Origin: a virus
Lineage: Duplodnaviria > Heunggongvirae > Uroviricota > Caudoviricetes
Strand: one strand, 5' to 3'
DNA: 38,571 bases
Virus record (IMG/VR): IMGVR_UViG_2541047961_000008
The notes under the pieces are model-generated. The model had not been told where the DNA came from. It worked only from the letters and a program-made list of their open reading frames with translations, and ran no database searches. Below, piece after piece: positions 4,107 through 36,410 of the stretch. The position numbers and the translations under genes are program-made. Numbering within the stretch: position 1 is the first letter of the stretch; every line of letters begins with the position of its first letter.

Positions 4107-4428
4107 GAAACCAGAACATGCACACACAAAAAAACCGCTTGCCATGCCGCAATCAGTCAGGTTACATTTCCGCTGCACCTCACAAAACGGGTGCCGGGTT
4201 TCGCAGCCTGCTGACTACACAAGCGCACAACCGCGCCAGCGGTTTTTTTGTGCGTACTGTATTGCCACGTTTTTTTCGCGTCAGAATTATGGCGGGGCGT
4301 ACGGGGCCGACTTCGGTCGGGCCGGGTTCTTGTGTAGCCGGTACTGCGAACCTCGTACGTCTCGCCACCCACAGTTTCGCAGCTCTGGATGGTGAGTTTT
4401 CACAACTTACTACACAAGGGGCCACACC
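4107..4428 (+). other. Structured non-coding segment in the early operon (candidate leader/attenuator RNA or sRNA)
   Basis: No convincing ORF; perfect 15-bp inverted repeat cacaaaaaaaccgct (4125-4139) / agcggtttttttgtg (4238-4252); ~76-nt element 4291-4366 closed by a 13-bp stem with an internal hairpin capped by a UUCG tetraloop (4307-4320). Confidence 0.35.
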
Positions 4429-5103: not shown

Positions 5104-7926
5104 ATGACGGCAGAGTACATCAGGGACTGGCAACAACCGCGCCACGCAGTGGGACGTGAAGGAACGGGGATCCCCGTTCCTGAATCCGCGCTTTCCTCCT
5201 GGCTGGATGCCTACCGGGCAGAGAACGAGCGCCGCCAGGAAATGGCTGATGCGGCGTTCTCCGCCACGCCGCTGGGCAACCTGATTAATAAAAGCCTGGA
5301 TGCACAGGAAAAACAGGACAAAACCATCACACTGGCAGGAGACGCCAGAAAACAGGTACGCGGTGCGGTGGATGAAGCCATGGCCTCGCTGCGCCTGCTG
5401 CCGTCCTATCTGCGCGATCCGCTTATTCGCCACCTCTCCTTCCTGCGCAAAAAACAGGAAGCCGATCGCCGGAAAGGCAAAAAGAGCTGGCAGGCTGAAC
5501 GCTACGCGCGCGGAACCCTGCGCAAAATATTCGAACGTCTGGACCGCACCGACCACCGCTGGCTGACACCGGGTTATCGCTCCCTTGCCGGACGCGAACG
5601 CCTGGATGATTTGCTTTACCTGCCGCAGCTCAACAAGCACCAGATACAGACGCTGGCCACCATGACGGCGGCGATGTTCAGCAGCACCTTCGAAAAACTC
5701 TGCGATGGCTTTGGCGCGACTGATGGCGAGCTGACCATGGATGTAACGCTGAAGGCGTATCAGATGCTGGCCCGCATGGCGTTACACCTGCACGCCATGC
5801 CTCCGCATTATGACGCACTGACAACAGACAAAGACCGGAGGAACGAACCGGACACGGAGCTGCTGCCGGGCGCAATCCTTCGCCTGACCTGTGCGGAATG
5901 GTGGAAACGCAAACTGTGGCTGTTACGTTGCGAGTGGCGGGAAGAACAACTCCGCGCCGCCTGTCTGGTTTCCAGAAAAACATCGCCCTATCTGAGCCAG
6001 GACGCGTTAAGCGAGTTTCGCGCACAGCGCGAGAAAACACGCGATTTCCTGAAAAGTTTCATGCTGGAAAACGAAGACGGGTTCACGATTGATCTCGAGA
6101 CGGTGTATTACGCGGGAGTAAGTAACCCGGTTCATCGTAAGGCAGAAATGATGGCCACCATGAAGGGGCTGGAACTTCTGGCCGAAGCCCGTGGCGACAA
6201 AGCGGTGTTTCTGACTGTCACCTGCCCGTCAAAATACCACGCCACAACAGAGAACGGTCATCCGAATCCCAAATGGAACGGGGCCACCATGCGCGACTCC
6301 AGCGATTACCTAGTTAACACGTTTTTTGCGGCGGTCCGCAAGAAACTGAACCGCGACGGTCTGCGCTGGTATGGCATCCGCACGGTGGAGCCTCACCATG
6401 ACGGCACGGTGCACTGGCATATGATGGTCTTTGCACATCCGGACGAGATTGAAACCATCGTGTCCCACGTCTGCGATATTGCCATTCAGGAAGACCGCCA
6501 CGAGCTGGGCGATGACATAACTCCGCGTTTTAAGGCGGAGTACGTCGACGGCTCAAAAGGCACGCCAACCAGCTACATCGCCACCTACATCGGAAAGAAC
6601 CTGGACAGCCGCGCCGTGGATGGTATCGACCCGAAAACGGGCAAGCCACGCGTTGACCACGAAACCGGAAAATCAATGGCCGAGAGCGTGGAGCGCGCCA
6701 TCGGCTGGGCGCGCCTTCACCGGGTCCGCCAGTTCCAGTTCTTTGGTATCCCCTCCCGTCAGGTATGGCGTGAACTCCGCCGCCTTGCCAGCCAGATGGC
6801 ACGCAACCCGGAAGGCCCGCAACGGCTGAAGGATGACGCAATGGATGCGGTACTCGCTGCCGCTGATGCAGGATGTTTTGCCACCTACATAGAGAAACAG
6901 GGCGGCGTACTTGTTCCACGCAAAGACTACCTGATTCGCACCGCCTACGACCTCGCCGATGAGCTGAACGATTACGGCGAACAGAGCGTACAGATTTACG
7001 GGATCTGGTCACCACTCATCGGGGAATCCTCCCGTGTGTGCACGCATCCGGATAACTGGAAGCTGGTAAGACGCAAACCGGAAGCGGAAGACAGCGCCCG
7101 CGAAAATGGTTTTGACCTTCAGGGCGGCCCTGCCGCCCCTTGGACTCGTGGCAATAACTGTCCCCGTGTACAGGAAACAGGCAACAGCGGGACAGAACAG
7201 TCGGAAGAACGGCCAGCACCGTGGCCGCAGCTTCCTGACGGCGTTGAAGTGAACGAATGGATGCGCTCACTGAAACGGCACGAACGCCGGGCGCTGATGC
7301 GTTCGCTTCGTGACAAACAGGCAAAAAACAGCAGTGATGAAATGCAGAGCTGGACACAGAGCCGCAAACAGCAGCGGCCTTTGCCTGATAACCACGAATT
7401 ACTCGCTAAAGAATGGCGGGAGTCTGCTGAATCTCTCGGCCTGCATATCGGTGAACAACAGATGCAGCACCTGTTACGGGGCGGCAGCCTGTACGTTGAC
7501 GGCAGCATCATTGCACCGCAGGGATATGAAATTGTACGTAAACCGGATACCCGCCCGGACAGCCGAATCACGCAGCTCTGGCAACGCCTGAGCCGTAACC
7601 ACGGCGTAAGCAGCACGGAGATCCGCCATAACCCGGTCGCCAGCTATCTGGAACAACTAGGGGCATCAGACCCTGAAGCCGCCGCACGCCTGGCATCCAC
7701 ACTTCAGCAAGACCAGAACACCATGAAAACACCCGTTACCGTACTTTCTGACATGCTGCGCGCCATCCGCGACGCAGAGCACGAACAGAGAATCAGTGAA
7801 ACAACTGAACGCGCCCGCCGCAAAGCAGACCTGCTGCGGGGTGGCCTGACCAGTGGAAACAAAAAACAGACAAAAACGGGATTCACAAATCCCGTAAATG
7901 AGCAAAAAACGTGCCGCGATATATGA
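5104..7926 (+). CDS. A: Rolling-circle replication initiator (P2 gpA-like HUH endonuclease), 940 aa with a long C-terminal extension
   Basis: HUH motif (TVHWHMMVFAH) and active-site tyrosine motif (SYIATYIGKN); follows the early operon as in P2/186; C-terminal ~250 aa is R/Q-rich. Confidence 0.85.
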   Translation: MTAEYIRDWQQPRHAVGREGTGIPVPESALSSWLDAYRAENERRQEMADAAFSATPLGNLINKSLDAQEKQDKTITLAGDARKQVRGAVDEAMASLRLLPSYLRDPLIRHLSFLRKKQEADRRKGKKSWQAERYARGTLRKIFERLDRTDHRWLTPGYRSLAGRERLDDLLYLPQLNKHQIQTLATMTAAMFSSTFEKLCDGFGATDGELTMDVTLKAYQMLARMALHLHAMPPHYDALTTDKDRRNEPDTELLPGAILRLTCAEWWKRKLWLLRCEWREEQLRAACLVSRKTSPYLSQDALSEFRAQREKTRDFLKSFMLENEDGFTIDLETVYYAGVSNPVHRKAEMMATMKGLELLAEARGDKAVFLTVTCPSKYHATTENGHPNPKWNGATMRDSSDYLVNTFFAAVRKKLNRDGLRWYGIRTVEPHHDGTVHWHMMVFAHPDEIETIVSHVCDIAIQEDRHELGDDITPRFKAEYVDGSKGTPTSYIATYIGKNLDSRAVDGIDPKTGKPRVDHETGKSMAESVERAIGWARLHRVRQFQFFGIPSRQVWRELRRLASQMARNPEGPQRLKDDAMDAVLAAADAGCFATYIEKQGGVLVPRKDYLIRTAYDLADELNDYGEQSVQIYGIWSPLIGESSRVCTHPDNWKLVRRKPEAEDSARENGFDLQGGPAAPWTRGNNCPRVQETGNSGTEQSEERPAPWPQLPDGVEVNEWMRSLKRHERRALMRSLRDKQAKNSSDEMQSWTQSRKQQRPLPDNHELLAKEWRESAESLGLHIGEQQMQHLLRGGSLYVDGSIIAPQGYEIVRKPDTRPDSRITQLWQRLSRNHGVSSTEIRHNPVASYLEQLGASDPEAAARLASTLQQDQNTMKTPVTVLSDMLRAIRDAEHEQRISETTERARRKADLLRGGLTSGNKKQTKTGFTNPVNEQKTCRDI

Positions 7927-8002: not shown

Positions 8003-8962
8003 ATGAAAATTTGTATCGACGACGGCTCCACCAACATCAAGCTGGCATGGACTGAGAACGGCGAACGCCGCAACGCCATCAGCCCGAACAGCTTCAAGTC
8101 GGAATGGTCTGCGCCGTTCGGTGGCACGCAGCCCGCGAACTACATGCTTGATGACGTGCGCTATGGTTTTGATCCGGTCAGCGATCGCTTTGTCCAGACG
8201 ACCGACACGCAATACCAGTACAGCGATGTGAATGTCATTGCCATTCATCACGCGCTGGTCAAATCAGGCATCACGCCACAGGCGGTGGATGTGGTTGTCA
8301 CCCTGCCACTGAGCGAGTATTTCGACACAAACGCACAGCCGGACATGGCCAACATCAACCGCAAAAAAGCGAACGTTATGCGCCCGGTGGAGTACCAGAA
8401 CGGCGAGGCATTCACTATCCGTAACGCGCGGGTTATGCCTGAATCCATTCCGGCTGGCTTTAAAGCACTGGCTGACATGAGTCCGTTTGAATCCCTGCTG
8501 ATTGTGGATTTGGGCGGAACCACGCTGGATGTGGCAAAGGTTCAGGGGCAACTGGCAGGTATCAGCCAGGTGTTTTGCGATCCACACGTAGGCGTTTCTC
8601 TGATGGCCGATGCCGTGCTGTCGGTGATGGCCACCAACGGTATGCGCACCAGTCACCACATCGCCAATACCATTATCGAACATCGCCACGATGAAGCCTG
8701 GCTGCGCCAGCACATCCACAATGACGCGCATTACGCCAGCCTGATGGCAGTTATTCGTGAAAAGGAAGAAACACTGAAACAACGCGTGATCCGCGCGCTG
8801 GCGGGTTTTTCGGGTTACGGGCGGGTGATGGTTGTCGGTGGCGGGGCGGAGATTGTGGCACCCGCTATCCGCGAAGCCTGCGGAGTTAATGCGACTTTCA
8901 TCGCGGACGGGGTGCCACAGTTTGCTCTGGTTAATGGGCTGTACGCAATGGACAAGGAGTAA
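8003..8962 (+). CDS. parM: Actin-like segregation ATPase, ParM/StbA family
   Basis: 319 aa; N-terminus KICIDDGSTNIKLAW and internal motifs (YSDVNVIAIHHAL, VMPESIPAGF, LIVDLGGTTLD, VMVVGGGAE, LVNGLY) closely track my recollection of plasmid R1 ParM. Confidence 0.85.
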   Translation: MKICIDDGSTNIKLAWTENGERRNAISPNSFKSEWSAPFGGTQPANYMLDDVRYGFDPVSDRFVQTTDTQYQYSDVNVIAIHHALVKSGITPQAVDVVVTLPLSEYFDTNAQPDMANINRKKANVMRPVEYQNGEAFTIRNARVMPESIPAGFKALADMSPFESLLIVDLGGTTLDVAKVQGQLAGISQVFCDPHVGVSLMADAVLSVMATNGMRTSHHIANTIIEHRHDEAWLRQHIHNDAHYASLMAVIREKEETLKQRVIRALAGFSGYGRVMVVGGGAEIVAPAIREACGVNATFIADGVPQFALVNGLYAMDKE

Positions 8963-8966
8963 ACCA

Positions 8967-9278
8967 ATGACGACACCAACCAGACGGATAAGTTTCTATC
9001 TGAAGCCCGCCGCCGTCAAGAACGAAGGCGAAGCATGCGCCTGGCTGGACAGCCTTACACCAGAAGCCCGCAAAAGCGGCCAACGCGTGGCTTTTCTGGC
9101 CGGGCTGGCACTTCTGAAAATGAATCCGGCAGAGGCTTACCGACTGGCTGCATGGGCTGATGATGAAGCGTTATCAGTGACACAAACCAGAGCAGAACGC
9201 CCTGCGACACCTCCAACGCCAACCACACAGATAACCAGCCAGATGGCCGGGAATATCCGGGCGTTATTTCCCGAATAA
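8967..9278 (+). CDS. parR: ParR/StbB-like centromere-binding adaptor
   Basis: 103 aa directly downstream of parM; RRISFYLKP...LDSLTPEARKSG...AFLAGLAL resembles the R1 ParR N-terminal RHH region as I recall it. Confidence 0.7.
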   Translation: MTTPTRRISFYLKPAAVKNEGEACAWLDSLTPEARKSGQRVAFLAGLALLKMNPAEAYRLAAWADDEALSVTQTRAERPATPPTPTTQITSQMAGNIRALFPE

Positions 9279-9330: not shown

Positions 9331-11463
<2,133 letters not shown>

Positions 11464-11563
11464 ATGGATTGGTGTGCTGCTGTTCATGATATGAATGCCG
11501 GATTTGATGAAACGATTTTGTTCCCCTCGTCAGTTGAAAGCACAGCAGGATAAGGACTAACAC

Positions 11564-11923
11564 ATGACTACTTTTACCGACAAAGAACTGATTAAAGAAA
11601 TCAAAGAGCGCATAGGCAGCCTGGACGTTCGAGACAATATTGAGCGTCGTGCTTATGAAATTGCACTGGCATCGCTGGAAGCAGAGCCTGTAGCGGAATG
11701 CATTATTGAAGATGGGGGTATGTGTGTTGACGGGTTCGGTGAGTATGTGGGTCACTCGCTGCCTGATGGAACGCACCAGCTTTACACCACCCCGCCAGCG
11801 CAGGTAGTGCCGGATGAAATGTATTGGCAGGATGCGCCAGTTGAAGGCAGCAGCAAAGCGGCTGCATACGCTACAGGCTGGAACGCCTGCCGCGCAGCCA
11901 TGCTTCGTAATGAAAATATTTAA
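11564..11923 (+). CDS. Hypothetical protein (119 aa)
   Basis: Good RBS aagga; N-terminus MTTFTDKE resembles that of the IS-disrupted upstream gene (MTTLTKKE), suggesting paralogy. Confidence 0.55.
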   Translation: MTTFTDKELIKEIKERIGSLDVRDNIERRAYEIALASLEAEPVAECIIEDGGMCVDGFGEYVGHSLPDGTHQLYTTPPAQVVPDEMYWQDAPVEGSSKAAAYATGWNACRAAMLRNENI

Positions 11924-12202
11924 TTAGAATTTTCAAAAGGAGACTATGCGTGAGAGGAATAAATATGCCGTTACAGGTTGAAGTCGAGGGCGTACATGGA
12001 AATTATTTTCTGTCGACTTTACGGCGGATGAACGGAAGTACTCATTTTATATCTATGCGATTAACCGTGAACATGCATCGTACATAGTGGACGATATTAA
12101 ACGCACAGCAGAACTGCCCCCTGGTAATCTTGTGGGTATTGTGAAGCGTATTTAGAGCTGCCCAGCCCACAGGAAGACGCAGATTATCAGTTGTCTGCCG
12201 TT

Positions 12203-12256
12203 GAATAAGAAAACCCGGAACGGGTGCGCAAATTCTTTGTGCGCCCGTTCCGGGTT
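12203..12256 (-). terminator. Rho-independent terminator of the leftward P-Q-zinc-finger operon
   Basis: Long GC-rich hairpin (aacccggaacggg... / ...cccgttccgggtt, 12212-12256) followed on the minus strand by a T-rich tract (12203-12211). Confidence 0.6.
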
Positions 12257-12497
12257 GGACAAGCGAAGCGCGTCAGTCGCCGTAGCCAGGGTGAATCCAC
12301 ATCACAAACAAGTTATCGTTGAATTTAAGTTTATTAAACGTTATTTTTCGCTCGCAGACTGTATTTAAGATTTTGGGGATTCAGAGGCGGCTCCCCAAAA
12401 AAAAAGCTGATACCGCCTAGTTGGTCACTTCGTCGTCAGACTGGGACTCCAACCACGCCAGCTGAGAGGTTGGCACAATCTTCTCCCAAAAAAACCA

Positions 12498-12824
12498 CTA
12501 ACCCGCCTGCAACAACTCCAGCGCCATCTGTTTTTCTTCCGGGCGCATTCGTTCAATCAACAGCTTTAACACGCCATTCTCCAGCCCGCTGGGCACCAGT
12601 GTGTGCGAGTAGGTCAGGTTCATCACCCAGGTGTGCCCACACTCGAGACGGGCGCAACGGTAATAAACATCTGCAAAGCGATCATCTTTCCAGAAGGTCT
12701 TCTCAATCACTGCGCGTTCACCACAGCAAAAACATCGCGCTTTTTGTCTGCGCATTTTCCACCTCCCAGAGCAGCGTTTTCCTGCTGCTGATTTTACCTG
12801 CTCTTTTCGCATGTCGCACATCAC
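12498..12824 (-). CDS. Ogr/Delta-family zinc-finger protein (late-gene activator-like) with C-terminal extension
   Basis: CFCCGER...17 aa...YYRCARLECGHTW matches the Ogr CxxC...YxxCxxxxCxxT(F/W) pattern; start overlaps the portal stop (ATGA). A downstream Met (MRRQKARCF) is an alternative start. Confidence 0.65.
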   Translation of the reverse strand: MMCDMRKEQVKSAAGKRCSGRWKMRRQKARCFCCGERAVIEKTFWKDDRFADVYYRCARLECGHTWVMNLTYSHTLVPSGLENGVLKLLIERMRPEEKQMALELLQAG

Positions 12825-13855
12825 TCCGGGGGCTCATCAAATTCAAGAATAAATTTCACCTCCCCCAGTCGCCTGATATCCGGGTCACTGTTGATTCCCT
12901 CCATGATCAGGCGGCGCATCGGAATAACCTCATCCCTGTAATATGCCTCGCGGGATTTCAGTGGGTCACCAAGCCCGGCCGTATTTGCGGGAATGATGCC
13001 GGCAAGTCCGGGTGGGAAACGGTGCGCAACGAGCTGATCCTGGGCACTGATGGTTTTTATATTCAGGAACTCATCTTTTGTACCTGAATCCCCGATAGGG
13101 ATCACCTTAACGCCTTCTTTGTCTCCGCCCGGTATATTGATAAACATGGATTTAAAATTGCCCACCCCTTTTGACGCCTCTATCTTTTTACGGAATTCCG
13201 CCTCGAGCTCGGGATCCATGTCCGGGTCAGTGGAATACAGGATATAACCAAGATGTGCGCCGTTCTTGTAATACTTGCGGCGAAAGCGGGTGGCATCCAC
13301 ATTCAGCATGGCGGATTCCATCCCGTGAATATAATCCGGGACACCGTAAACCTGCTGTTGTGGGTCATAAATGGCCACGAACACCACTTCGCCTGGCTGA
13401 TAAACGAGATCTTCCAGTGCTGCCTGCACAATCACCGTGCCACCCTCGTTGTTACGCCGCAGGTACAGAGAAGGTAACGTATGCAGGCGCACCACTCGAC
13501 CGAAGCCATTGCGCACTTTAAGCAACCCCATATCCCCGAATATCAGCAGATTGGTTACTGCTGCCGCCATGGCGGCGTGTGTCATACCACCACCACCCCG
13601 AAAACCCTGCATGATCATATTGACGCGCGCACGCAATACCGCGCCGTGATACGGTGCGATATTGGACAACATGGCGAGATCCATGCGCTCAATTGGCGGC
13701 GTGTACCAACCGTTATAGCCATCCCAGAGCGAGCCGTAATAACAGCCCCATGCAGCGACCGGCTCCGGGTCACCAAATTCAATAAACGTCATTTTGCTGG
13801 CTGTTTTTTTTGCCACGCCATCGTGTAACACGGGGTATTTTTTCTTTTTACTCAT
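12821..13855 (-). CDS. Q: Portal protein (P2 gpQ-like)
   Basis: 344 aa, the same length as I recall for P2 Q; downstream of the large terminase on the same strand. Confidence 0.9.
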   Translation of the reverse strand: MSKKKKYPVLHDGVAKKTASKMTFIEFGDPEPVAAWGCYYGSLWDGYNGWYTPPIERMDLAMLSNIAPYHGAVLRARVNMIMQGFRGGGGMTHAAMAAAVTNLLIFGDMGLLKVRNGFGRVVRLHTLPSLYLRRNNEGGTVIVQAALEDLVYQPGEVVFVAIYDPQQQVYGVPDYIHGMESAMLNVDATRFRRKYYKNGAHLGYILYSTDPDMDPELEAEFRKKIEASKGVGNFKSMFINIPGGDKEGVKVIPIGDSGTKDEFLNIKTISAQDQLVAHRFPPGLAGIIPANTAGLGDPLKSREAYYRDEVIPMRRLIMEGINSDPDIRRLGEVKFILEFDEPPE

Positions 13856-15635
13856 CTGACAGGATCCATGTTGATTTGCGCTTGTGCTTATAGTTCAGGG
13901 GTTCATTACTTGCGGCATGAGCTATGGCAAAGAAGATGTCAGCGTGCCCGGTTTCTTCGCTACGTTCGGCGGTAAAAGTAACTTTATTGCCACTGTTGGT
14001 GGATTCCTGACGAATGGCCAGGAACGATGCCGGAATATCCGTAGCTTCCTCATCCCACTCAATACGGTTGGCGTAAATCAGATCCAGCATCTTCATCACC
14101 AGGCGGTTTTTGGATTCCACGCTGTAATGAATGGCCACTGTTTCACGGCGGGCAAATCCCTGAACCAGCTCAAAGACACCGTAGCCAAGACCGGTGACGT
14201 CAATGCCGATAAACGTCATGTTATAGCGTGCCTTAATGCTGCGGATACGCTCTGCCATAAACTGGAATGACATGCTGCGCCAGTGGTGTTTTTCCAGCAC
14301 GCGGAATCGTTCTGCCGCAACCAGCGGCGGTGCCAGCACAACAAATGTGGCGTTATCGCCGGAGCGCGCAGGGTCAAAGCCGCCCCAAACCTCACGGTTA
14401 CCAAATGGCATGGGCTCTTCCGGGTGAAAATCCTCCCACGTACTAACATCAACACCACAACGCACAAGATCATCGAATTTAAAGACGCTCTCTTTGTCAT
14501 CCACAAACACACACATAAACAGCATATTGAACGCTGTTTCGTTGTATCGCTCGCGCAGCTCGTTGATGTCAGCAAGGTTAAAGCCGCCGGCAATGGCATC
14601 TTCCAGCGTAACCACATAGCGCCACTGACCATCCGGACATTCACGCCCACCATCGCGCAGCTCATCAAAGGACGGAAACTCAACCCCTTTTCGTTTCGGA
14701 TCGCCTTTGCGCCATTCATCGCCAGACCAGAACGGGTAACCCTGGTGTGTTTTGGATGACGGCGTGGAGAAATAGGTAATGCGCCAGTGTTTATGGGTGG
14801 CCATCCCTGATGCCACTTCATTGAGACAGCGAAAACCGGGGATCCACAGGTATTCATCAATATACAGGTGGCCGCTGTTTGACTGCGCTGTGTTACTGTT
14901 GGTCGCCAGAAAATACAGTTCAGCCAGATTACTTAACTTAACCGGATTGCCTTTAATGGGAATGCCAAACTCTGTTTGTGCAATTTTTACAATATAAGTA
15001 CGGAACACTTCGGCCTGACGTTTTGATGCCGATAAAAATATCTGTGTGTCGCCGGTTAATACTGCATCTTCAAATGCCTCAAACGCGAAGTAATACGTCG
15101 CCCCAATCTGGCGGGATTTAAGCAGGTTGCGTACACGGCGGAATTTGTTTTCACGCAGATGCAACTGATAAGCAAACAACTTTTTCGTAAACGGCTCAAA
15201 ACTTTCAGCAGTCAGTCCGGAAACGTCATTAGCTTTGCGGGGGCGCTCTTTCTTACCTGCACCTTTTTCTCCGCGTTCTTCTTTTCCATAACGACCAGAC
15301 TGGGGAATATCCGCTCCCATTCGTTCAATCTCGGCCATTCGTTCCGTGTGCTTGTTCCTGACCGACATCAGTTTGACGTGATGACCAATCAGGCGATCGA
15401 GTTCATCGTGCTCTTCCGGCGTTTTATGATCACGCTCCGCCAGTACAGCGAGACGACGGGCGATAACATCCTCCACGCCTTCAGTATTAAGCTGTGTGTA
15501 CCACTCAAACTTTGTCGCCCAGTAATAAACAATTCGCGGGCTGTTCAGTCCGAGCTTCTTTTGTATTTCTTTTGGTGTGTGCCTTTTCAGATAGAGCGAT
15601 TTTGCAGCAGCAATCACCTCATCAGAATACGCCAT
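13848..15635 (-). CDS. P: Terminase large (ATPase) subunit (P2 gpP-like)
   Basis: 595 aa; size and position divergent from the scaffold/capsid operon as in P2. Confidence 0.9.
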   Translation of the reverse strand: MAYSDEVIAAAKSLYLKRHTPKEIQKKLGLNSPRIVYYWATKFEWYTQLNTEGVEDVIARRLAVLAERDHKTPEEHDELDRLIGHHVKLMSVRNKHTERMAEIERMGADIPQSGRYGKEERGEKGAGKKERPRKANDVSGLTAESFEPFTKKLFAYQLHLRENKFRRVRNLLKSRQIGATYYFAFEAFEDAVLTGDTQIFLSASKRQAEVFRTYIVKIAQTEFGIPIKGNPVKLSNLAELYFLATNSNTAQSNSGHLYIDEYLWIPGFRCLNEVASGMATHKHWRITYFSTPSSKTHQGYPFWSGDEWRKGDPKRKGVEFPSFDELRDGGRECPDGQWRYVVTLEDAIAGGFNLADINELRERYNETAFNMLFMCVFVDDKESVFKFDDLVRCGVDVSTWEDFHPEEPMPFGNREVWGGFDPARSGDNATFVVLAPPLVAAERFRVLEKHHWRSMSFQFMAERIRSIKARYNMTFIGIDVTGLGYGVFELVQGFARRETVAIHYSVESKNRLVMKMLDLIYANRIEWDEEATDIPASFLAIRQESTNSGNKVTFTAERSEETGHADIFFAIAHAASNEPLNYKHKRKSTWILSDE

Positions 15636-15829
15636 AAATAAACCTCACCTGCTGATGCAATTTTAATTTATGCATTTTCAGCAAAGGCTTTTTTAAAAAC
15701 GAATATCGCTTTTCGGTATTTTTCGGATATATACGCATATCCGAAAGTACCGGAAATTAATCAGATGACGACATTTTCATTTCTCCGTTAAATAACGCCA
15801 GTTTAATTTTTATCAGCGGATTAATTCAG
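15636..15829. promoter_or_regulatory. Divergent late promoter region with palindromic activator-site candidates
   Basis: AT-rich 194-bp gap between divergent P and O; 39-bp near-perfect palindrome cggtatttttcggatatatacgcatatccgaaagtaccg and a TGCA-N11-TGCA dyad. Confidence 0.45.
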
Positions 15830-16720
15830 ATGTCGAAACTGAAAACAGACTGGGTGGTCGTAGCCACTTCAGGCCCCACCATCGACGGTCGGGAAATTGA
15901 TCCAAAGTGGCTGACGGATGCCGCCGAGGTTTATAACCCGGACGAACACACCGCCATGCTCTGGCCGTTTCATGCCAGCGCCGGCTGGCGTGCTTTCACC
16001 AATAACTATGGTCTTGTTGATGCACTGAAGGCGGAAAAAGTCGGTGATAAAGTGCAGCTGAAAGCCCGCCTGATACCAAACCGCTTTCTGACCGAAGCCA
16101 ACGAGGCTGGACAAAAACTTTTCACCTCCATAGAGGTAAAGGAAAACTACCTGGGAACAGGCAAATTCTTTGTATCCGGTATCGCCGTGACTGACACACC
16201 GGCCAGCATCAACACCACCCGCCTGCAATTTTCGCAGGGAGATTCCATTCACATGGGGAATGCAGAAGAACTGAATTTCACGCTGCAGTCTGACGACGAG
16301 CAGGCCAAACGCAGTTTCTTTTCCGGCCTTTTCTCCGTGGGACGCAACAAACAGGAAAACGATATGAACGAAAAACAGTTCGGTCAGTTGATGGACGCCA
16401 TCAACAAAACCGGCGAACGCCTGGACAAACTGGAAGAAAACGTCGCGCAGTTCAGCGCGAAGAATGCCCCGAAAGATACCGGTGATAACAAGCCGGAAGG
16501 CAGCGCCGGCGATCAGGGGCAGAACAACACAGAACAGAACAACAAGGACGACAAAACCTTCACGCTGACCATCGAGCAGGGCGAAAAGCTGTTCTCCACA
16601 GTGAACGCCATCGCGGAGAAGGTTACCAGTATGGAAACCGCATTTGCTGAACTCAGCAAGGACGCCACGAAGCTGCCGGGCAACAATCCGGCCGGTGGCG
16701 AAACTTTTAACCTGGTGTAA
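15830..16720 (+). CDS. O: Capsid scaffolding protein (P2 gpO-like)
   Basis: 296 aa, first gene of the rightward head operon; acidic coiled-coil-like middle region. Confidence 0.8.
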   Translation: MSKLKTDWVVVATSGPTIDGREIDPKWLTDAAEVYNPDEHTAMLWPFHASAGWRAFTNNYGLVDALKAEKVGDKVQLKARLIPNRFLTEANEAGQKLFTSIEVKENYLGTGKFFVSGIAVTDTPASINTTRLQFSQGDSIHMGNAEELNFTLQSDDEQAKRSFFSGLFSVGRNKQENDMNEKQFGQLMDAINKTGERLDKLEENVAQFSAKNAPKDTGDNKPEGSAGDQGQNNTEQNNKDDKTFTLTIEQGEKLFSTVNAIAEKVTSMETAFAELSKDATKLPGNNPAGGETFNLV

Positions 16721-16734
16721 CCGGAGAGAACGCA

Positions 16735-17748
16735 ATGAACATGACACCAGAAGCACAAAAGCTGGTTAATCAGTACATCAGCGAACTGCAAAAAACATTC
16801 AGTGACTGCGGAAAATCAAGCGATCGTTTCTTTTCGCTGACCGAGCCACGCAGTATTGCCCTGCGTAAAGCCCTGCTGGAAAGCACGGAATTTCTGAGTT
16901 TCACCACCTGTATGGACGTTCCGCATCCGCAAGGGCAGGTCGTCACCGTGGGCGAATCCACGCTGCGCACCGGTCGCGTGAAAAGCGGTCGTTTCGCTAA
17001 AGGTTCGGGCATTAAAGGCAACGAATTTAAACTCGTTGAAACTGATTCCTGCTGTGTGATCACCTGGGAACAACTCGCCATCTGGGCGAATGCCGGCAGC
17101 CCGAAGGAATTTTTCAACCTGATGAACTCCGCCGCCGTCACCAACTTTGCGCTGGATATGCTGCGCATTGGCTTTAACGGTAAAACAGCAGCGGAAAACT
17201 CTGACCCGGAAAGTCACCCGAACGGCGAAGACGTCAACATCGGCTGGCATGAAATCGCCAAAAAATGGGGAGAACTGCCCGGCAATACCTCCCGTATTCT
17301 GACGGACGCCGTTACCCTGGGCGAAGGCGGTGATTATGTCGGCCTTGATGCCATGGCCTCAGACCTGATCCGCACTTATATCCCGGCGCAATATCACAAC
17401 GATCCTCGCCTTACTGTGCTGGTTGGCGCAGACCTTGTGGCTGCTGAAGAACTACGCCTCTACAACAAAGAGGATAAGCCTACCGAAAAAGTGGCCGCAC
17501 AGTTGCTGACGAAGAACATTGCGGGCCGCAAGGCCATCATTCCGCCGTTTATGCCGGGCAAACGTATGGTGGTGACCATGCTGCCAAACCTGCAGATCCT
17601 GACGCTGAAAGGCTCCCGCCGCCGCAAGGCAGAAGATGTGGGCGATCGCAAACAGTTCGAAAACTCATACTGGCGTTACGAGGGGTACGCCCTGGGCGAT
17701 CCGGATTTATATGCTGCCGTGGATGAGTCTGCGGTCACCATCGCCTGA
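16735..17748 (+). CDS. N: Major capsid protein (P2 gpN-like)
   Basis: 337 aa; GFNGK...NIGWHEIAKKW...GEGGDYVGLDA segment resembles my recollection of P2 N; RBS ggagag. Confidence 0.85.
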   Translation: MNMTPEAQKLVNQYISELQKTFSDCGKSSDRFFSLTEPRSIALRKALLESTEFLSFTTCMDVPHPQGQVVTVGESTLRTGRVKSGRFAKGSGIKGNEFKLVETDSCCVITWEQLAIWANAGSPKEFFNLMNSAAVTNFALDMLRIGFNGKTAAENSDPESHPNGEDVNIGWHEIAKKWGELPGNTSRILTDAVTLGEGGDYVGLDAMASDLIRTYIPAQYHNDPRLTVLVGADLVAAEELRLYNKEDKPTEKVAAQLLTKNIAGRKAIIPPFMPGKRMVVTMLPNLQILTLKGSRRRKAEDVGDRKQFENSYWRYEGYALGDPDLYAAVDESAVTIA

Positions 17749-17765
17749 TAAACGGAGCACACGGT

Positions 17766-18476
17766 ATGCCAACGCCAATGCAGCGACAACGTGCCCGACA
17801 GATGGATGAGCGCCGTGCAGTGCTCATGACCAGAACAGACGGGCGCGCCGTCAGCACAGAGAGTCAGCACATTAAGCTGCTGGCACTGGATAACGACATC
17901 AGACAACTGCACAACATGGAGCTGCTGTCTGACAAGCTGGAATTCAAGCGGAACACGCTGCTGCCCCGCTGGCTGCCACACGCACAGGCTTATCTGGAGG
18001 GGGAACGCGTCTATCAGAATCCCATTCTGGTGTACTGCATCATCTGGCTGTTCGATACCGGGCAGTTTGAGATGGCGCTGCGGTGGGCTGACATTGCCAT
18101 TGAGCAGGGACAGAAGACGCCGGAGAACTTCAAAAGCGAGCTGCCAACGTTTGTGGCCCATTTCATTCTTGAATGGGCAGAAACCGAAGCAGAACGCGGG
18201 AACAGTATCGCGCCATATTTTCAGCAGGTGTTTGAAAAAATCCGCGACAAATGGCGTGTGAATGAACGCCTTGCTGCCCGCTACTGGCGCTTTGCAGGCG
18301 TCCTGCTGCTGCGCGGTGATGACGGTAAACCGCTGGCCAGTGCAATTAATGATCCGGGGATACTGCAACAGGCCGACCAGTGTCTGGAGCGGGCTGCCTG
18401 GCTGCATCCCAAAATTCAGGTGAAGACTCTGCGCCAGCGCATTGCCGCAAGACTGCGCGCGTTGCAGGGCACGTAA
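17766..18476 (+). CDS. M: Terminase small (endonuclease) subunit (P2 gpM-like)
   Basis: 236 aa, position after the capsid gene as in P2. Confidence 0.75.
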   Translation: MPTPMQRQRARQMDERRAVLMTRTDGRAVSTESQHIKLLALDNDIRQLHNMELLSDKLEFKRNTLLPRWLPHAQAYLEGERVYQNPILVYCIIWLFDTGQFEMALRWADIAIEQGQKTPENFKSELPTFVAHFILEWAETEAERGNSIAPYFQQVFEKIRDKWRVNERLAARYWRFAGVLLLRGDDGKPLASAINDPGILQQADQCLERAAWLHPKIQVKTLRQRIAARLRALQGT

Positions 18477-18574
18477 ACGACTCCCAACAACCGGGCGGGC
18501 GCGGTGGAGGTGTGCCGGCAAAAGCCATCAGCACACTGCGGAAACCGGTCAGTCCGCCTTTCCACGGAGCAAGC

Positions 18575-19069
18575 ATGTTTGACGGGAAAAGCATTCACTA
18601 TCAGCAGGCCATTATTCAGAACGATGGATTCTGGCCGGATATTGATGCCGGTGATTTTGAAAAGAGCCGCAGCATCCCCGCCGTCACGTCACACGAAACG
18701 GTGCTGACGGCGCTGCTTTGCGCGGTGACAGAGATTAACACTGAACTGGCTGCACGCCGTGAATACTGGCAGGAACAGGGCTACATCCGGGCCACTGATA
18801 TTCCGGGTTACACCGTGTTGCAACCAGAGTCGCGCAACACGGATGCACAACCTCAACGGATGCAGAACCACATTACAGCACTGTACACCAAGGCTGTGTA
18901 TGCACGCGCAAAGGCCGATCTTTTGCCGGAATCTGCCAGCGTGGGGCGGCGCGAGGCGCAGCCCTCATCAGAAGCCAGCGAGAGCCGTCGGACGTTGCTG
19001 GCTGAAGCGGCCATGGCGGTGCGGGCACTGTTGGGCCGACCGCGCGCCTCCATTGCACTGATTGATTAA
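18575..19069 (+). CDS. L: Head completion/stabilisation protein (P2 gpL-like)
   Basis: ATG at 18575 with ggagc RBS, in frame with ORF 18380-19069; FWPDID motif resembles P2 L (FFFPDID as I recall). Confidence 0.7.
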   Translation: MFDGKSIHYQQAIIQNDGFWPDIDAGDFEKSRSIPAVTSHETVLTALLCAVTEINTELAARREYWQEQGYIRATDIPGYTVLQPESRNTDAQPQRMQNHITALYTKAVYARAKADLLPESASVGRREAQPSSEASESRRTLLAEAAMAVRALLGRPRASIALID

Positions 19070-19078
19070 GGAAATGCT

Positions 19079-19552
19079 ATGACGCAACTTGCAAGCCTGA
19101 CGGCATTCATTGAAAACAATCTGCCGGCACGCACACGCATTCCGTTCACCAGTGACATGGATGACATCACGCTCGTTCCGTTCACGAAGTCGCTGGGGCA
19201 CGGGCAGTTATGCACACAGGTTCGAAAATACACAGCCATTCTGTGCTGGGACGCATGGCCCTATCGTCAGCTAGATCCGGATTTGGTGTTTTCTCTGGTT
19301 GAAGCCTGGCTGGCAGACAACGGCGGCGACTTGCGCCAGCGCCTGGCACCGGATGCGCCAGCCGTTGACGTCGGAGTGGATGATGAAAATGAAGTGGCAT
19401 GGCTGGAAATCAGTCTGCCGCTGGTTGATCCCATCACCCTGATTGAGGACGAAAACGGTCCCATCCCCAGAGGTGGGAAACGTTACCGGCTGGAAAAGCC
19501 TGAAATCTGGGTGGCTCAGGCGCATCAACTTCACTGTCAGGTGATGCCATGA
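19079..19552 (+). CDS. Putative tail completion protein (gpR-like)
   Basis: 157 aa, between head completion and S-like genes; assigned by size and position only. Confidence 0.45.
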   Translation: MTQLASLTAFIENNLPARTRIPFTSDMDDITLVPFTKSLGHGQLCTQVRKYTAILCWDAWPYRQLDPDLVFSLVEAWLADNGGDLRQRLAPDAPAVDVGVDDENEVAWLEISLPLVDPITLIEDENGPIPRGGKRYRLEKPEIWVAQAHQLHCQVMP

Positions 19553-20262
19553 CGCGCCCCGTGATTAATGAATCACAGCTCCGGCAGGTTCGTCGCGCCA
19601 TCAGAGAGGCAGAGCTTCCGCCGGCAAAGGCCAGAAAGCTGCTGGTTCGTATTGCGAAATACGGCCTGATGCCGGCTGCACGGCGCAATGTGAAAGCACA
19701 GCGAACACCAGAGGGGGCAGCCTGGGCACCACGAAAAAGACCGGATAAAGCCCGCGGCAAGTATAAAAACAAAATGCTGCTGGGACTGCCAAAACTGCTG
19801 GCCATCAGGGTTGACAGCGACGGGAAAAGTGTCCGCCTTTTCTTCAAAAAGGGGGACTACAACACCGGATCTCATGGCGGGGCGGTAGCATGGGTGCAAC
19901 AGCACGGTGCAACCATCAAAGGCCGCGCCACAAAACGCCGGGACAACGAAGCCATGCGCACCCGCCCCGCCACACGACGACAGGCGGAGCGGCTTCTTTC
20001 TCTGGGCTTTCGGGCCCCCGTTGGCGCAGTCAGCAAAAAAACCGGACGCAGGGGACGCAGAAAGCCCTCCCTGAAATGGATTATGGAAAACATGAGTATG
20101 GCGCAGGCCGGGCTGGTGATCAGCATCCTGAAAGGCGAGCAGAAAAAGCGTGTATGGGAAATCAAAATCCCCTCCCGCGCATTTCTGGGCGCCAGCGATG
20201 CTGAATTTACCCGCATTCTGGAAGCGCAGTTGCGCAGCCTGCATTACGGCGGCACGAGATAA
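19549..20262 (+). CDS. Putative virion morphogenesis / tail completion protein (gpS / Mu gpG family)
   Basis: 237 aa, translationally coupled; assigned mainly by position before the sheath gene. Confidence 0.5.
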   Translation: MTRPVINESQLRQVRRAIREAELPPAKARKLLVRIAKYGLMPAARRNVKAQRTPEGAAWAPRKRPDKARGKYKNKMLLGLPKLLAIRVDSDGKSVRLFFKKGDYNTGSHGGAVAWVQQHGATIKGRATKRRDNEAMRTRPATRRQAERLLSLGFRAPVGAVSKKTGRRGRRKPSLKWIMENMSMAQAGLVISILKGEQKKRVWEIKIPSRAFLGASDAEFTRILEAQLRSLHYGGTR

Positions 20263-20281
20263 CAAAATCAGGAGACAAATT

Positions 20282-21430
20282 ATGACCTGGCCATCTGTCA
20301 CGATTGAACAGTACAACACGTTCAGTAGCTCGCCGGACGGCGTGGAAAATACGCTGCTGTTTGTGGGCAATGCACAAAACAACAAAGGTAAGATTCTGCC
20401 GGTTAATGCCAACAGTGATCTGGATGAGCTACTGGGAACGAACGCCAGCCCACTGAAGAGTTTCCTTCAGTCCGCACTGACCAATGCCGGACAGAATGCC
20501 TTTTTCTATGTTGCCGTTCTGCCGGAAGCAGGCAGGGGCAAAGAAGCGACGCCAGCCTGCCAGGCATGGCAGAACGCCATACTGGCGGCTCAGGAAACTG
20601 TTTCAGTTGAAGGTGTGGTGATCACCGAGCCGGTCAGCGCAAAGGATGATATCAACACCATGCAGGCGCTACGTCAGACCATCATCAATAAATATCAGCG
20701 CCGCATCTGGTTCATCCTGACCATCGCCGCCAACGGCGGCAGTAAAACCTGGGCAGAATACGTTGCCGAACTGACCACACTACAGGAAGGTATTGCAGCC
20801 CCGCAGATCATGCTGGTTCCGGAGATTTTTGGATTTGAACCGGGCGTTCTTGCAGGTCGCCTGTGTAACAGCGCCGTCACCATTGCTGACAGTCCGGCAC
20901 GTGTGGCAACCGGGGCACTGTCCGCACTGAAAACCACAGAGCGCCCGAAGGACAGCGCGGGACAGACAATTGATCTCGCCACCCTGCAGGCGCTGGCAAC
21001 CGCCCGCTACAGCGTGCCCATGTGGTATGCCGACTATGACGGCCTTTACTGGGCCGACGGCGTGACACTTGAGGTGGAAGGCGGGGACTACAACGTCATC
21101 GAACATGTCCGCATTGCTGATAAGGTGGCGCGCCGCGTACGGCTGATGGCCATCCCCAAAATTGCCGATCGCTCACTGAACAGCACACCGGGCAGCATTG
21201 CCGCACATGAAACGCTGTTTGCCCGCCCGCTGCGTACCATGGCGAAATCCACGCAGATTAACGGTGTCACCTTTCCGGGCGAAGTGAAATCGCCACAAAA
21301 AGGCGATGTGGCCATCACCTGGCAGGACGAAAAGACGGTCAGCATCAGCATTGTTGTCCGCCCTTACGCCTGCCCCAAAACCATCAAAGTGGGCATTCAG
21401 CTGGACAAATCTCTGGAGGAGAACGCATGA
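20282..21430 (+). CDS. Putative tail sheath protein (non-P2 type)
   Basis: 382 aa from the ATG at 20282 (RBS caggag); lies between completion genes and the tube-chaperone-tape measure set; not obviously similar to P2 FI. Confidence 0.6.
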   Translation: MTWPSVTIEQYNTFSSSPDGVENTLLFVGNAQNNKGKILPVNANSDLDELLGTNASPLKSFLQSALTNAGQNAFFYVAVLPEAGRGKEATPACQAWQNAILAAQETVSVEGVVITEPVSAKDDINTMQALRQTIINKYQRRIWFILTIAANGGSKTWAEYVAELTTLQEGIAAPQIMLVPEIFGFEPGVLAGRLCNSAVTIADSPARVATGALSALKTTERPKDSAGQTIDLATLQALATARYSVPMWYADYDGLYWADGVTLEVEGGDYNVIEHVRIADKVARRVRLMAIPKIADRSLNSTPGSIAAHETLFARPLRTMAKSTQINGVTFPGEVKSPQKGDVAITWQDEKTVSISIVVRPYACPKTIKVGIQLDKSLEENA

Positions 21431-21882
21431 CAACCCGCATTAACGGCATGGCCTTTGATGTTTATGTTGGCGGAACGGATATCCGCGTAAAAAACATTTC
21501 GCTGGATATCAGCGACGAAAGCGCCGTGGCCAAAACCCGTGGCATCCCTGACGGCAAACTGCGCGGTCCCGTCAGTGCCGAAGGTGAAATCGAAATGAGC
21601 ACCCGCAGTTTTAACCAGCTCGGGGAAGCGGCCGCTCAGGCGGGATCGTGGCGTGACCTGCCATCAATGGATTTTGTGTTCTACGCCAACACAGGCACCG
21701 AAGAAATCCGCGTTGAAGTCTTCGGGTGTGAGCTGATGCTTTCGAACCTGTTAAGCATTGACACCGAGAGCGCGGATCTGACCACGCACAAAATCAAGTA
21801 CGTGGTGGCAAGCCCTGACTTTGTACGTATCAACGGCGTGCCCGTTCTCTCAGAGAACGACGTGCGCGGGCTGATGGGGTGA
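21427..21882 (+). CDS. Putative tail tube protein
   Basis: 151 aa, coupled to the sheath gene and upstream of chaperone and tape measure. Confidence 0.55.
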   Translation: MTTRINGMAFDVYVGGTDIRVKNISLDISDESAVAKTRGIPDGKLRGPVSAEGEIEMSTRSFNQLGEAAAQAGSWRDLPSMDFVFYANTGTEEIRVEVFGCELMLSNLLSIDTESADLTTHKIKYVVASPDFVRINGVPVLSENDVRGLMG

Positions 21883-21885
21883 ACC

Positions 21886-22182
21886 ATGCAGGAGCATGAA
21901 CGCACCATCATCACCCTGGGCATTCTGGGCGGAATCGCTGCCGCAAGTCGGGTGCTGGCTGGCGCAGAACCGATTACGTTGCGGTTGTTTGTGGGCCGAA
22001 CCCTGCTGGGGAGCGCGCTGGGTGTTTCTGCCGCCGCCCTGCTGGTTCGCTACCCGAACCTTGACCCACTGGCCATTGCCGGCGCAGGTACCGCAATGGG
22101 CGTTGCCGGTTACCAGATTGTGGAAATCTTCCTGCGCCACATGCGCCGGAAGCTGGACGAAAAAGAGAACAAAGAGGAGTAA
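21886..22182 (+). CDS. Putative holin
   Basis: 98 aa with hydrophobic segments (IITLGILGGIAAA, LLGSALGVSAAALL, AIAGAGTAMGVAG) and a charged C-tail; immediately upstream of an endolysin. Confidence 0.5.
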   Translation: MQEHERTIITLGILGGIAAASRVLAGAEPITLRLFVGRTLLGSALGVSAAALLVRYPNLDPLAIAGAGTAMGVAGYQIVEIFLRHMRRKLDEKENKEE

Positions 22183-22187
22183 CCGCA

Positions 22188-22295
22188 ATGCAGTCCCGCA
22201 GGGATCAGAAAGCCGCTGCCATTGTCTGGAAAATTATCCGGGCGTTGTGGCGCTGGTTGCGTAAACCTCAACAACCCCGTAAGGAGCAAAAATGA
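22188..22295 (+). CDS. Candidate 35-aa basic amphipathic peptide (MQSRRDQKAAAIVWKIIRALWRWLRKPQQPRKEQK)
   Basis: Unannotated small ORF between holin and endolysin; its stop overlaps the endolysin start. Confidence 0.25.
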   Translation: MQSRRDQKAAAIVWKIIRALWRWLRKPQQPRKEQK

Positions 22296-22633
22296 AACTC
22301 TCCGATAAGCAACAACAATTTACCGTCATGATCGGAAAACTCATCCAGTTTGCCCATCAGCGCGGTTATGGCCTGACGTTCGGTGAGGCGTACCGCACGC
22401 CAGAGCAGGCAAAACTCAACGCACAAAAGGGTTCCGGCATCACCAACAGTCTGCACTGCCAGCGACTGGCGGTGGATTTTAATCTGTTTATTAACGGTGA
22501 ATACCAGACCCGCACAGAGGCTTACCGCGAACTGGGCGAGTACTGGGAATCCCTCGGCGGCTCATGGGGCGGTCGTTTTAAAAACCGCCCGGATGGCAAT
22601 CATTTCAGCCTTGAGCACGACGGTGTGCGCTGA
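22292..22633 (+). CDS. Endolysin, M15-family zinc peptidase
   Basis: 113 aa; H...D...H metal-binding pattern (SLHCQRLAVDFNL...DGNHFSLEHD) typical of small M15 peptidase endolysins. Confidence 0.7.
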   Translation: MKLSDKQQQFTVMIGKLIQFAHQRGYGLTFGEAYRTPEQAKLNAQKGSGITNSLHCQRLAVDFNLFINGEYQTRTEAYRELGEYWESLGGSWGGRFKNRPDGNHFSLEHDGVR

Positions 22634-22639
22634 TTTTAC

Positions 22640-22671
22640 GCTTAATAAGCCTTCCTGCAGGCTTATTAAGC
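22640..22671 (+). terminator. Perfect 12-bp inverted-repeat hairpin after the lysis genes (candidate terminator/attenuator)
   Basis: gcttaataagcc-ttcctgca-ggcttattaagc followed by ccccttattctt (weak T-tract). Confidence 0.35.
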
Positions 22672-22697
22672 CCCCTTATTCTTGACATTAACAGGAC

Positions 22698-22991
22698 ATG
22701 ATGATGAACGATAAAAACACCCAGACCACCGCAGAGAACGCCATCACTTTACAGGTCGGCGAGCATGAACTGACGTTTATCCCGACGGTGAAAGACTACA
22801 ACGACCTGCAGAACGACTTCATGCCGGACAATAAAATTGCACCGCTGAAAAACTACCTGCGCCGCATCGTGATTAAAGAGCACCGCGATCTGCTGAACCA
22901 GTTGCTGGAAAAACCGGGAATGCCGGCCAGCCTGGCAACAGCCGTGAATAACGAATTTGTGCCGGAAGTGGAGATCACCGTAAAAAAATAA
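22698..22991 (+). CDS. Tail assembly chaperone (gpE-like)
   Basis: 97-aa acidic protein directly upstream of the tape measure; ends in the slippery A-run gtaaaaaaataa. Confidence 0.6.
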   Translation: MMMNDKNTQTTAENAITLQVGEHELTFIPTVKDYNDLQNDFMPDNKIAPLKNYLRRIVIKEHRDLLNQLLEKPGMPASLATAVNNEFVPEVEITVKK

Positions 22992-23178
22992 AAAGCCGTC
23001 TGGAGGCCATTAACCGTAATGACCTTACCCGGATGCTGATCCTGCGCCGCCACTGGCTGCCCGGTGAGGATGATTCGCCGCAGTCACTGGCGGCCGCCAT
23101 CTGGCTGGATAACCACTACTGGGAAAACATGAGCGTCGCCGTCAATAACGGCATTATCCGTGCTTTTAAGGGATCGTA
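22698..23178 (+). CDS. Tail assembly chaperone frameshift product (gpE+E' analogue) via -1 slip in the A7 tract near 22982-22988
   Basis: The -1 frame after the A-run is open to 23178 (…KIKSRLEAINRNDLTRMLILRRHWLPGEDDSPQSLAAAIWLDNHYWENMSVAVNNGIIRAFKGS) and ends 1 nt before the tape measure ATG. Confidence 0.55.
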
Positions 23179-25275: not shown

Positions 25276-25615
25276 TAAACCGCTTTACATTGATTTGCTT
25301 ATCACCGGTCGCAATTTCACGCTGAACAGCGCCGCCGAACCGGTGCTGTGCAACAACAGGGAAAGCATTGCCCAGGACTGCCAGCACGCCATCATTGAAA
25401 GCGGACTGGCAACGCGCCTGCTGGCTGAAAAAAGCCCGACGCTTCGCGCCGACATTATGATGCAGATGACACTGCTGATTGAAGATGATGAGCGCATCAC
25501 ACCCGGCACGGTCAGTGTGACAGAGGAAACCCCGCTTTCCGGCCGCCTGCTGATTAGCGCCCACACCGAAGATTTTTTTGATCCCCTGACTTTTACGGTA
25601 TCTCTTGATGATTAA
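25265..25615 (+). CDS. Baseplate protein, gpW/gp25-like
   Basis: 116 aa from the ATG at 25265 (in frame with ORF 25112-25615); size and position before the J-like gene match P2 W. Confidence 0.5.
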   Translation: MHTDKPLYIDLLITGRNFTLNSAAEPVLCNNRESIAQDCQHAIIESGLATRLLAEKSPTLRADIMMQMTLLIEDDERITPGTVSVTEETPLSGRLLISAHTEDFFDPLTFTVSLDD

Positions 25616-29286: not shown

Positions 29287-29299
29287 TTAAGGAGAAATA

Positions 29300-32370: not shown

Positions 32371-32394
32371 CATTTGAACGTACAGGAAAATGAG

Positions 32395-36326: not shown

Positions 36327-36410
36327 GGAAACCGCGACGGGGGAGCAATCCCCCGTCAATCGGTTGTCAGGGCAAGACTGATAAGGCACCCTATACACAT
36401 CCCAAAGCAG

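Follow-up and report, generated by a model that had tools for sequence, protein, structure and literature searches.

The closest described systems to the locus studied here are the late activator genes ogr of phage P2 and B of phage 186. Each encodes a C4 zinc finger of the form C-X2-C-X22-C-X4-C and follows the last gene of a late operon, lying after gene D and next to att. The gap that precedes the gene, as calculated from annotated coordinates, is 81 nt in P2 and 66 nt in 186. In the GenBank record of P2, the ogr promoter has the −10 sequence TAAAAT, 34 nt before the ATG, and in 186 the promoter pB has the −10 sequence TATCAT, 31 nt before the ATG of B. The hairpin after ogr is recorded in P2 as the "terminator for ogr transcript and F operon", and tB is recorded in 186 as "termination of transcription from pB and late promoter". 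The late operator of P2 lies about 55 bp upstream of the start. A third relative, Delta of P4, belongs to the same Pfam family and is encoded in the sid-delta-psu cluster; this cluster is a late, self-activated operon, and an Ogr-type activator under late control is known there. A link between P2 Ogr and the α subunit of RNA polymerase comes from Ogr-rpoA109 genetics (PMC11434276).

The stretch of DNA analyzed here (38,571 nt; IMG/VR record IMGVR_UViG_2541047961_000008; hereafter the window) is a complete P2-like prophage, which extends from the integrase gene (1–1020) through to the host gene flk, with flk/yfcJ forming the right flank. It carries genes for a C-type helix-turn-helix (HTH) repressor (1102–1440), cox (1538–1825), gpA (5104–7926), the partition proteins ParM and StbB, and a long rightward structural block; gpA, cox, portal, terminase, and gpO are of the P2 type and the capsid genes are of the P2 family. 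One insertion in the prophage was read as an IS21-type element. The leftward late operon (12821–15635, minus strand) consists of the P-like gene for the terminase large subunit (13848–15635; Pfam Terminase_6N, Terminase_6C, and Terminase_5) and the Q-like portal gene (12821–13855; Pfam Phage_portal). It reads into a small zinc-finger gene (12498–12755, minus strand), and the gpO scaffold gene begins divergently at 15830. This placement of an Ogr-like gene as the last gene of the leftward unit of terminase and portal, which had been proposed in the initial annotation of the window, was borne out.

By every sequence criterion that we applied, the encoded protein is assigned to the Ogr/Delta family, within the portal-adjacent subfamily typified by Vibrio phage K139. 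The translation matched the Pfam profile Ogr_Delta (PF04606) over its full length (profile positions 1–47 of 47) with 42.3 bits against a cut-off of 26.3 (E = 7.2e−11), and it matched PHROG 603, "transcription regulation", with E = 4e−27; there was no matching model in NCBIfam. The four cysteines (Cys8, Cys11, Cys34, and Cys39) have the C-X2-C-X22-C-X4-C spacing and fall in columns that are invariant across P2 Ogr, 186 B, P4 Delta, and the aligned phage homologues, so the claim of an Ogr-like finger behind the portal gene came through the spacing test that had been set to refute it. Identity to P2 Ogr is 18%, and the pairwise BLAST match is marginal (E = 0.004). The protein, which is encoded by a P2-like prophage, has the small single-domain size of the class of about 70–90 aa. 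P4 Delta differs from it in being satellite-encoded and 166 aa long with a tandem duplication of the finger, and the C-terminal parts of the two proteins show a loose alignment.

The open frame on the minus strand extends over 108 codons (12498–12824), and its first GTG (12824) overlaps the portal stop codon. However, the ATG at 12755 is preceded by a strong ribosome-binding site (GGGAGGTGGAAA, in the context GGGAGGTGGAAAATG), all aligned homologues begin at the methionine matching this ATG, and the RefSeq annotation of the corresponding protein in Escherichia coli prophages, which is 92%–99% identical to the window protein, gives 85 aa; among about 60 related loci, the zinc-finger protein measures 85–90 aa. 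The true coding sequence is thus almost certainly 12498–12755, with 85 rather than 108 aa, and 65 nt lie between it and the portal gene. The coupling to the portal gene proposed initially has to be given up accordingly, as the two genes neither overlap nor are translationally coupled. The C-terminal extension of about 50 aa that had also been described is absent: 46 residues follow the last cysteine in the window protein and 37 in P2 Ogr, and the whole protein is 13 aa longer than Ogr (85 vs. 72 aa).

We then compared the position of the gene with that in relatives. The closest phage homologues, found by tblastn against phage genomes with identities of 42%–52%, were those of Salmonella phages SI7, SW3, and SW5, Cronobacter phage ESSI-2, Yersinia phage vB_YenM_324, Aeromonas phage phiO18P, and Vibrio phages K139 and Kappa. 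In a locus survey with one genome per species, which yielded 80 loci, all from Enterobacterales, the terminase, portal, and zinc-finger genes were consecutive on one strand in 62, with gpA convergent downstream of the zinc-finger gene where gpA was detected. The window has the same order, with the replication gene convergent. K139 and ESSI-2 likewise carry the zinc-finger gene after terminase and portal, and the SI7 record, viewed around the gene, shows it adjoining the replication genes, consistent with the same order. An ogr homologue with the portal gene on one side and the replication endonuclease gene on the other has been reported for K139 and Smhb1 (PMC8537503), and other papers describe the position of ogr as variable among P2-like phages. 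The portal-adjacent site is thus, as judged from these gene orders, where P2-like phages of the K139/ESSI-2/SI7-like branch normally carry this gene, and not the mark of a displaced copy, and the position regarded initially as unusual is an order already stated in the literature. K139 differs from the window in having an extra small open reading frame (orf14) between the portal gene and the zinc-finger gene, orf13, which is annotated only as a "zinc-finger protein". Compared with P2 and 186, the gene is attached to the terminase-portal operon, not to the tail operon FETUD, and it is flanked by the portal gene and by the replication and partition genes instead of adjoining att.

The gap between the portal gene and ogr (12756–12820, minus strand; 65 nt) measures 35–80 nt with a mode of 50 in the 62 related loci, apart from one outlier of 2741 nt. 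In the window it contains the hexamer TAAAAT (12791–12796, minus strand), at a distance of 35 nt from the ATG. Of 63 distinct sequences from related loci, 59 share this strand-specific hexamer, at 29–38 nt from the ATG (mode 32); the exceptions are TAAGAT, TAGAAT, TAAACT, and, in K139, TATGAT. An A-rich run precedes the hexamer, and a G stands at −2, the extended −10 position, in 60 of 63 sequences, while the other flanking bases vary. The hexamer is identical to the −10 of the P2 ogr promoter and similarly spaced. We consider it probable on these grounds that ogr has its own promoter in the gap and that TAAAAT is the −10. The −35, located just upstream of the gap across the portal stop codon, is poor, matching at three of six positions in the window, which accounts for the failure of a consensus promoter scan to call this promoter.

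Conversely, ogr might have no promoter of its own and be the last cistron of the P-Q operon, with TAAAAT serving as a processing or protein-binding site. The shortness of the gap, the poor −35, the negative promoter scan, and the absence of terminator-like sites from the minus strand of the gap would all fit this arrangement. It is nevertheless unlikely, considering that the hexamer is nearly invariant in sequence, strand, and distance from the ATG, is accompanied by the conserved G, and agrees with the annotated P2 −10 in both sequence and spacing. Further, expression would have to begin from basal leakage and be kept up by feedback, and a sole activator that requires itself for its own synthesis has a start-up problem.

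These observations divide the proposal of the initial annotation that ogr is under late control with possible positive feedback. Late read-through into ogr, and hence positive feedback, is plausible because no terminator intervenes, which part of the proposal stands. The conserved −10 in the gap, as the mark of a separate promoter, argues against purely late control. Nor would such feedback be of a new kind, since the GenBank records of P2 and 186 already describe ogr and B after a late operon, with their own promoter and a shared terminator. The window shows the same cassette, with a −10 in a short gap and a terminator after ogr, but none before it. For direct self-activation, we searched for TTCGG-N13/14-CCGAA, the motif considered below as a candidate operator, and found no copy with up to one mismatch within about 150 nt upstream of ogr at any locus. 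A recurrent dyad with one mismatch about 770 nt upstream of ogr was set aside as a conserved coding motif of the portal gene.

Between the −10 and the Shine-Dalgarno sequence lies an inverted repeat (12766–12791, minus strand) that is predicted to fold into a leader hairpin with a minimum free energy of −10.3 kcal/mol. Most lineages carry an inverted repeat at this place, with arm sequences that differ between lineages. Among 24 representatives sharing less than 75% identity, which are not fully independent, the mean z score against dinucleotide shuffles was −1.17 (Wilcoxon p = 2.5e−5). The final base of the −10 is also the first base of the 5ʹ arm, and the hairpin extends into the Shine-Dalgarno sequence, where it ends. 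RNA started at the gap promoter would therefore lack this arm, and the hairpin would form only in the read-through P-Q-ogr RNA. This geometry suggests that the hairpin may damp translation of ogr from late transcripts. It is equally possible that the inverted repeat is a DNA operator. For a repressor operator at the ogr promoter, the inverted repeat AGCAGC-N8-GCTGCT was compared with the repeats of the early switch (1440–1540) and was found to be unlike them; 186 has a CI operator at pB, and a counterpart at the ogr promoter of the window is unsupported.

At the other end of the gene, the strong perfect-stem terminator noted initially is real. The intrinsic terminator (12202–12256, minus strand), which would end both the ogr and the P-Q-ogr transcripts, is made up of a hairpin (12212–12256) with 13 perfect pairs plus an extension, followed by UUUUCUUAUU (12202–12211), which provides the U tract. 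The energy of the hairpin is −36 kcal/mol with a z score of −5.1, and none of 200 shuffles folded as well. In nearly all related loci, the ogr stop codon is followed by a terminator at no more than about 40 nt, an approximate statement made by reading the listed sequences, as the automatic finder missed many obvious terminators.

In the window, the distance from the ogr stop codon to the terminator is about 240 nt, owing to the insertion of a non-coding module of about 220 nt (12277–12497), by which the window copy differs from the K139 group. This module is present in E. coli ECL27977 and in phage Chuche, and it is absent from the close relatives in E. coli A36 and E. albertii, which carry the same hairpin about 25 nt after the stop codon. 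The module core (12409–12479; 71 nt) is about 81% identical to positions 44646–44718 of phage lambda. Searches of the 240-nt stretch revealed no tRNA and no Rfam match at the gathering score, with matches at chance level when E values up to 10 were admitted, and neither strand folded better than shuffles. A small open reading frame near the module copy in Chuche was inspected and is not an Ogr. A search with the P2 cos 19-mer, allowing up to three mismatches, gave no match, and a cos site carried by the module is unlikely because close relatives lack the module.

As the presumed targets of the protein, the late promoters were sought in the intergenic region between the terminase and scaffold genes (15636–15829). 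The motif TGT-N12-ACA occurs six times in the window against 9.4 expected, and neither this region nor any other intergenic region contains it, so it was rejected as the operator here. Instead, the region contains the perfect dyad TTCGGATAT-ATACGC-ATATCCGAA (15722–15745). A perfect TTCGG-N13/14-CCGAA occurs once in the 38.5 kb, with about 0.07 occurrences expected (ten fixed bases, two spacings). The same dyad is found in the same P/O intergenic region of 35 distinct related sequences, the flanks of which are unalignable; they range from Escherichia to Vibrio phage K139, which has TTCGG-N14-CCGAA between its terminase and scaffold genes. In addition, all four loci with ogr beside tail genes have a perfect dyad just upstream of the tail operon. 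About one third of the related portal-linked loci, including the SI7-like group, lack the perfect dyad and appear to have a variant with a longer spacing. Outside the dyad lie a further TTCGG half-site (15712–15716), 10 bp from the inner one, and an imperfect mirror of it, CCGGAA (15750–15755), both read directly from the sequence; these extra half-sites are one helical turn outside the dyad, and similar ones flank the dyad in relatives.

Candidate −10 hexamers are located on both sides of the dyad. On the P side, GAAAAT (15674–15679, minus strand) lies 54 nt from the dyad centre, with TAAAAT (15660–15665, minus strand) as an alternative −10 of the terminase promoter; among relatives, 26 of 35 sequences have a −10-like hexamer, mostly CATAAT, that starts 54 nt from the centre, and the 35 counted hits lie at 52–56 nt. 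On the O side, 29 of 35 relatives have AATAAT or AATACT with the same 54-nt spacing, as found by a scan that required an A at the second position of the hexamer; TTAAAT (15788–15793, plus strand), which lacks this A, was read at the corresponding position of the window, 54 nt from the centre, as the candidate −10 of the scaffold promoter. In K139, −10-like hexamers fit on both sides of the dyad. A single dyad would thus be placed about 65 bp upstream of each of two predicted divergent start sites, compared with about 55 bp for the P2 operator. We propose, based on its conservation and position, that the dyad is the binding site of the zinc-finger protein, common to the P and O promoters. The late region differs in this from those of P2 and 186, as it has TTCGG-N14-CCGAA and no TGT-N12-ACA, and one site for both divergent promoters. 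The absence of TGT-N12-ACA suggests a different DNA specificity of the protein, not a different role. As there is only one dyad for the rightward block of about 19.5 kb, further late promoters may exist in this block that have not been recognized.

A zinc ribbon with a task linked to its neighbours, such as DNA packaging, recognition of cos together with terminase and portal, or repression, rather than late activation, is a much less probable reading of the same data. It would suit the constant company of packaging genes and the outcome of a profile search of solved structures, in which the protein showed only weak resemblance to RPB9/TFIIS-type zinc ribbons; neither a relative of the protein nor a solved structure of the Ogr/Delta family was found in the Protein Data Bank. 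However, members of the same subfamily also occur without portal or terminase, namely, beside tail-only (tailocin-like) clusters with the dyad ahead of their tail operon, and in P4-like satellites, which parallels the presence of Delta in P4. The Pfam match extends over the full profile above the curated cut-off, and a dyad placed symmetrically between two promoters has the geometry expected of an activator site.

The initial annotation had treated the gene as an extra copy and had asked whether a second ogr lies beyond the window. A motif scan and a search with the family hidden Markov model (HMM), both in six frames over the whole window, detected no second Ogr-type open reading frame, the next best match having E = 0.04; and related lysogens have host genes immediately beyond the integrase and nothing phage-like there. 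The gene can therefore hardly be an additional, functionally diverged paralogue with the real late activator elsewhere, as its 18% identity to Ogr and the position of ogr/B next to att in P2 and 186 might suggest, given that the complete prophage from integrase to flk holds a single Ogr-family frame and that adjacency to the portal gene is the norm of the lineage.

We favour the reading, with a probability of about 0.7 for the gene assignment together with the mechanism that follows, that the gene at 12498–12755 encodes the single Ogr/B/Delta-type activator of late (head, tail, and lysis) transcription in this prophage. A weak σ70 promoter in the portal-ogr gap, with its −10 at 12791–12796 and its poor −35, would provide the initial supply of the activator. 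This would bind, probably as a dimer, to TTCGG-N14-CCGAA at 15722–15745 and from there activate two promoters, the leftward one of terminase and portal and the rightward one of scaffold, capsid, and tail, presumably by way of the α subunit of RNA polymerase, as P2 Ogr does. The activated P-Q transcripts would run on into ogr, producing positive feedback, and all transcripts would stop at the hairpin at 12212–12256. The layout, as far as it can be read from the sequence, is the P2/186 design hung on the P-Q operon instead of FETUD. Whether the portal-adjacent subfamily is in addition a distinct regulatory variant, with a single TTCGG-N13/14-CCGAA site midway between two promoters at about −65 from each and a read-through hairpin damping the feedback, is considerably more doubtful, and we put this forward tentatively. 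If true, damping by the hairpin would cap the positive feedback.

The zinc-finger gene itself is ordinary and already annotated in public genomes, and the present results leave the current understanding of P2-type late control unchanged; potentially new are only the predicted operator, the promoter geometry with a shared site, and the leader hairpin. For annotation, the late activator should be sought after the portal gene, not at att, in this Enterobacterales/Vibrio group of P2-like phages, and a copy found there should not be counted as a second ogr. As the subfamily is also present in P4-like satellites and tail-only clusters, the predicted operator could be useful for predicting the helper phages open to exploitation by such satellites. 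The conserved promoter proposed for the gap, a candidate operator unlike that of P2, and the divergent layout with a shared site would extend the P2 model of late control to this branch.

Between the stop codon of the ogr gene, which encodes the probable late activator, and the terminator hairpin of that gene lies an inserted non-coding module of about 220 nt (12277-12497). The similar prophages of E. coli A36 and E. albertii lack the module, and that of E. coli ECL27977 has it; it also occurs in phage Chuche, in a different context, after a partition gene. Its 71-nt core (12409-12479), detected in about 480 genomes of E. coli, shares about 81% identity with lambda 44646-44718, a segment within the pR' late leader (6S RNA) whose orientation matches the plus strand of the window. 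The module (12277-12497) matched no Rfam family and gave no significant fold.

The Ogr subfamily of the window is also carried by P4-like satellites. The Kosakonia sp. locus L084 (1-10258) is such a satellite, with an Ogr protein of 90 aa (Pfam E-value 2e-17), and six related loci (L058, L076, L079, L081, L083, and L085) are similar to it. These satellites encode a P2-family major capsid protein, an Ash-family protein, an alpha-type primase-helicase (DUF927/Toprim), a retron-type reverse transcriptase, and a P4-type integrase, and both portal and terminase are absent from them. The TTCGG dyad, the candidate Ogr-type binding site, was not detected in these satellites.

Upon inspecting loci from Xenorhabdus and one uncultured member of the Enterobacteriaceae, we found that the ogr-like gene adjoins the tail sheath and tube genes rather than the portal gene. 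A perfect TTCGG-N13/14-CCGAA dyad lies directly 5ʹ of the tail operon in these tail-adjacent loci (L059, at about 7027; L060, about 7106; L063, about 6283; and L049, about 4743), which may represent tailocin-type clusters or rearranged prophages. In the window, the genes for structural proteins and lysis form a rightward plus-strand block of about 19.5 kb that has few gaps (15830-35358), and the single recognisable dyad for this block is located in the terminase-scaffold intergenic region. Either a single late operon of great length covers the block, or the block contains additional late promoters with unrecognised sites.

The stretch from the last tail gene to host flk, at the right prophage end, carries an ORF of 96 aa and a gene for a DUF4875 protein, both on the minus strand (35641-37256). 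The corresponding stretch in close E. coli relatives is annotated as encoding Hok/Gef and DUF4875 proteins, and these genes look like cargo adjoining attR. In the early region, an isrK Hfq-binding RNA (4175-4249, plus strand; 64 bits) is directly followed by a C4 antisense RNA (4285-4372, plus strand; 83 bits), both above the Rfam gathering scores. The pair resembles the antisense immunity/anti-repressor control module of the P1/P7 type and lies here within a P2-like prophage.

Two plus-strand ORFs of 340 and 260 aa, putatively IS21-type IstA/IstB (9595-11396), separate the partition genes from the ogr region. In E. coli, the left part of the DNA query 11400-13000 matched thousands of places, as expected for a repeated element. 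The putative insertion may have disrupted a gene kept in relatives, for example one of those that encode hypothetical and Rrf2-type proteins in A36. The partition genes themselves, a plasmid-type ParM (StbA) and StbB pair on the plus strand 3ʹ of gpA (8003-9278), are shared with the E. coli relatives and phage Chuche. That a P2-like prophage carries such a pair while integrated may point to a plasmid-like stage or to stabilisation of the replicating genome.
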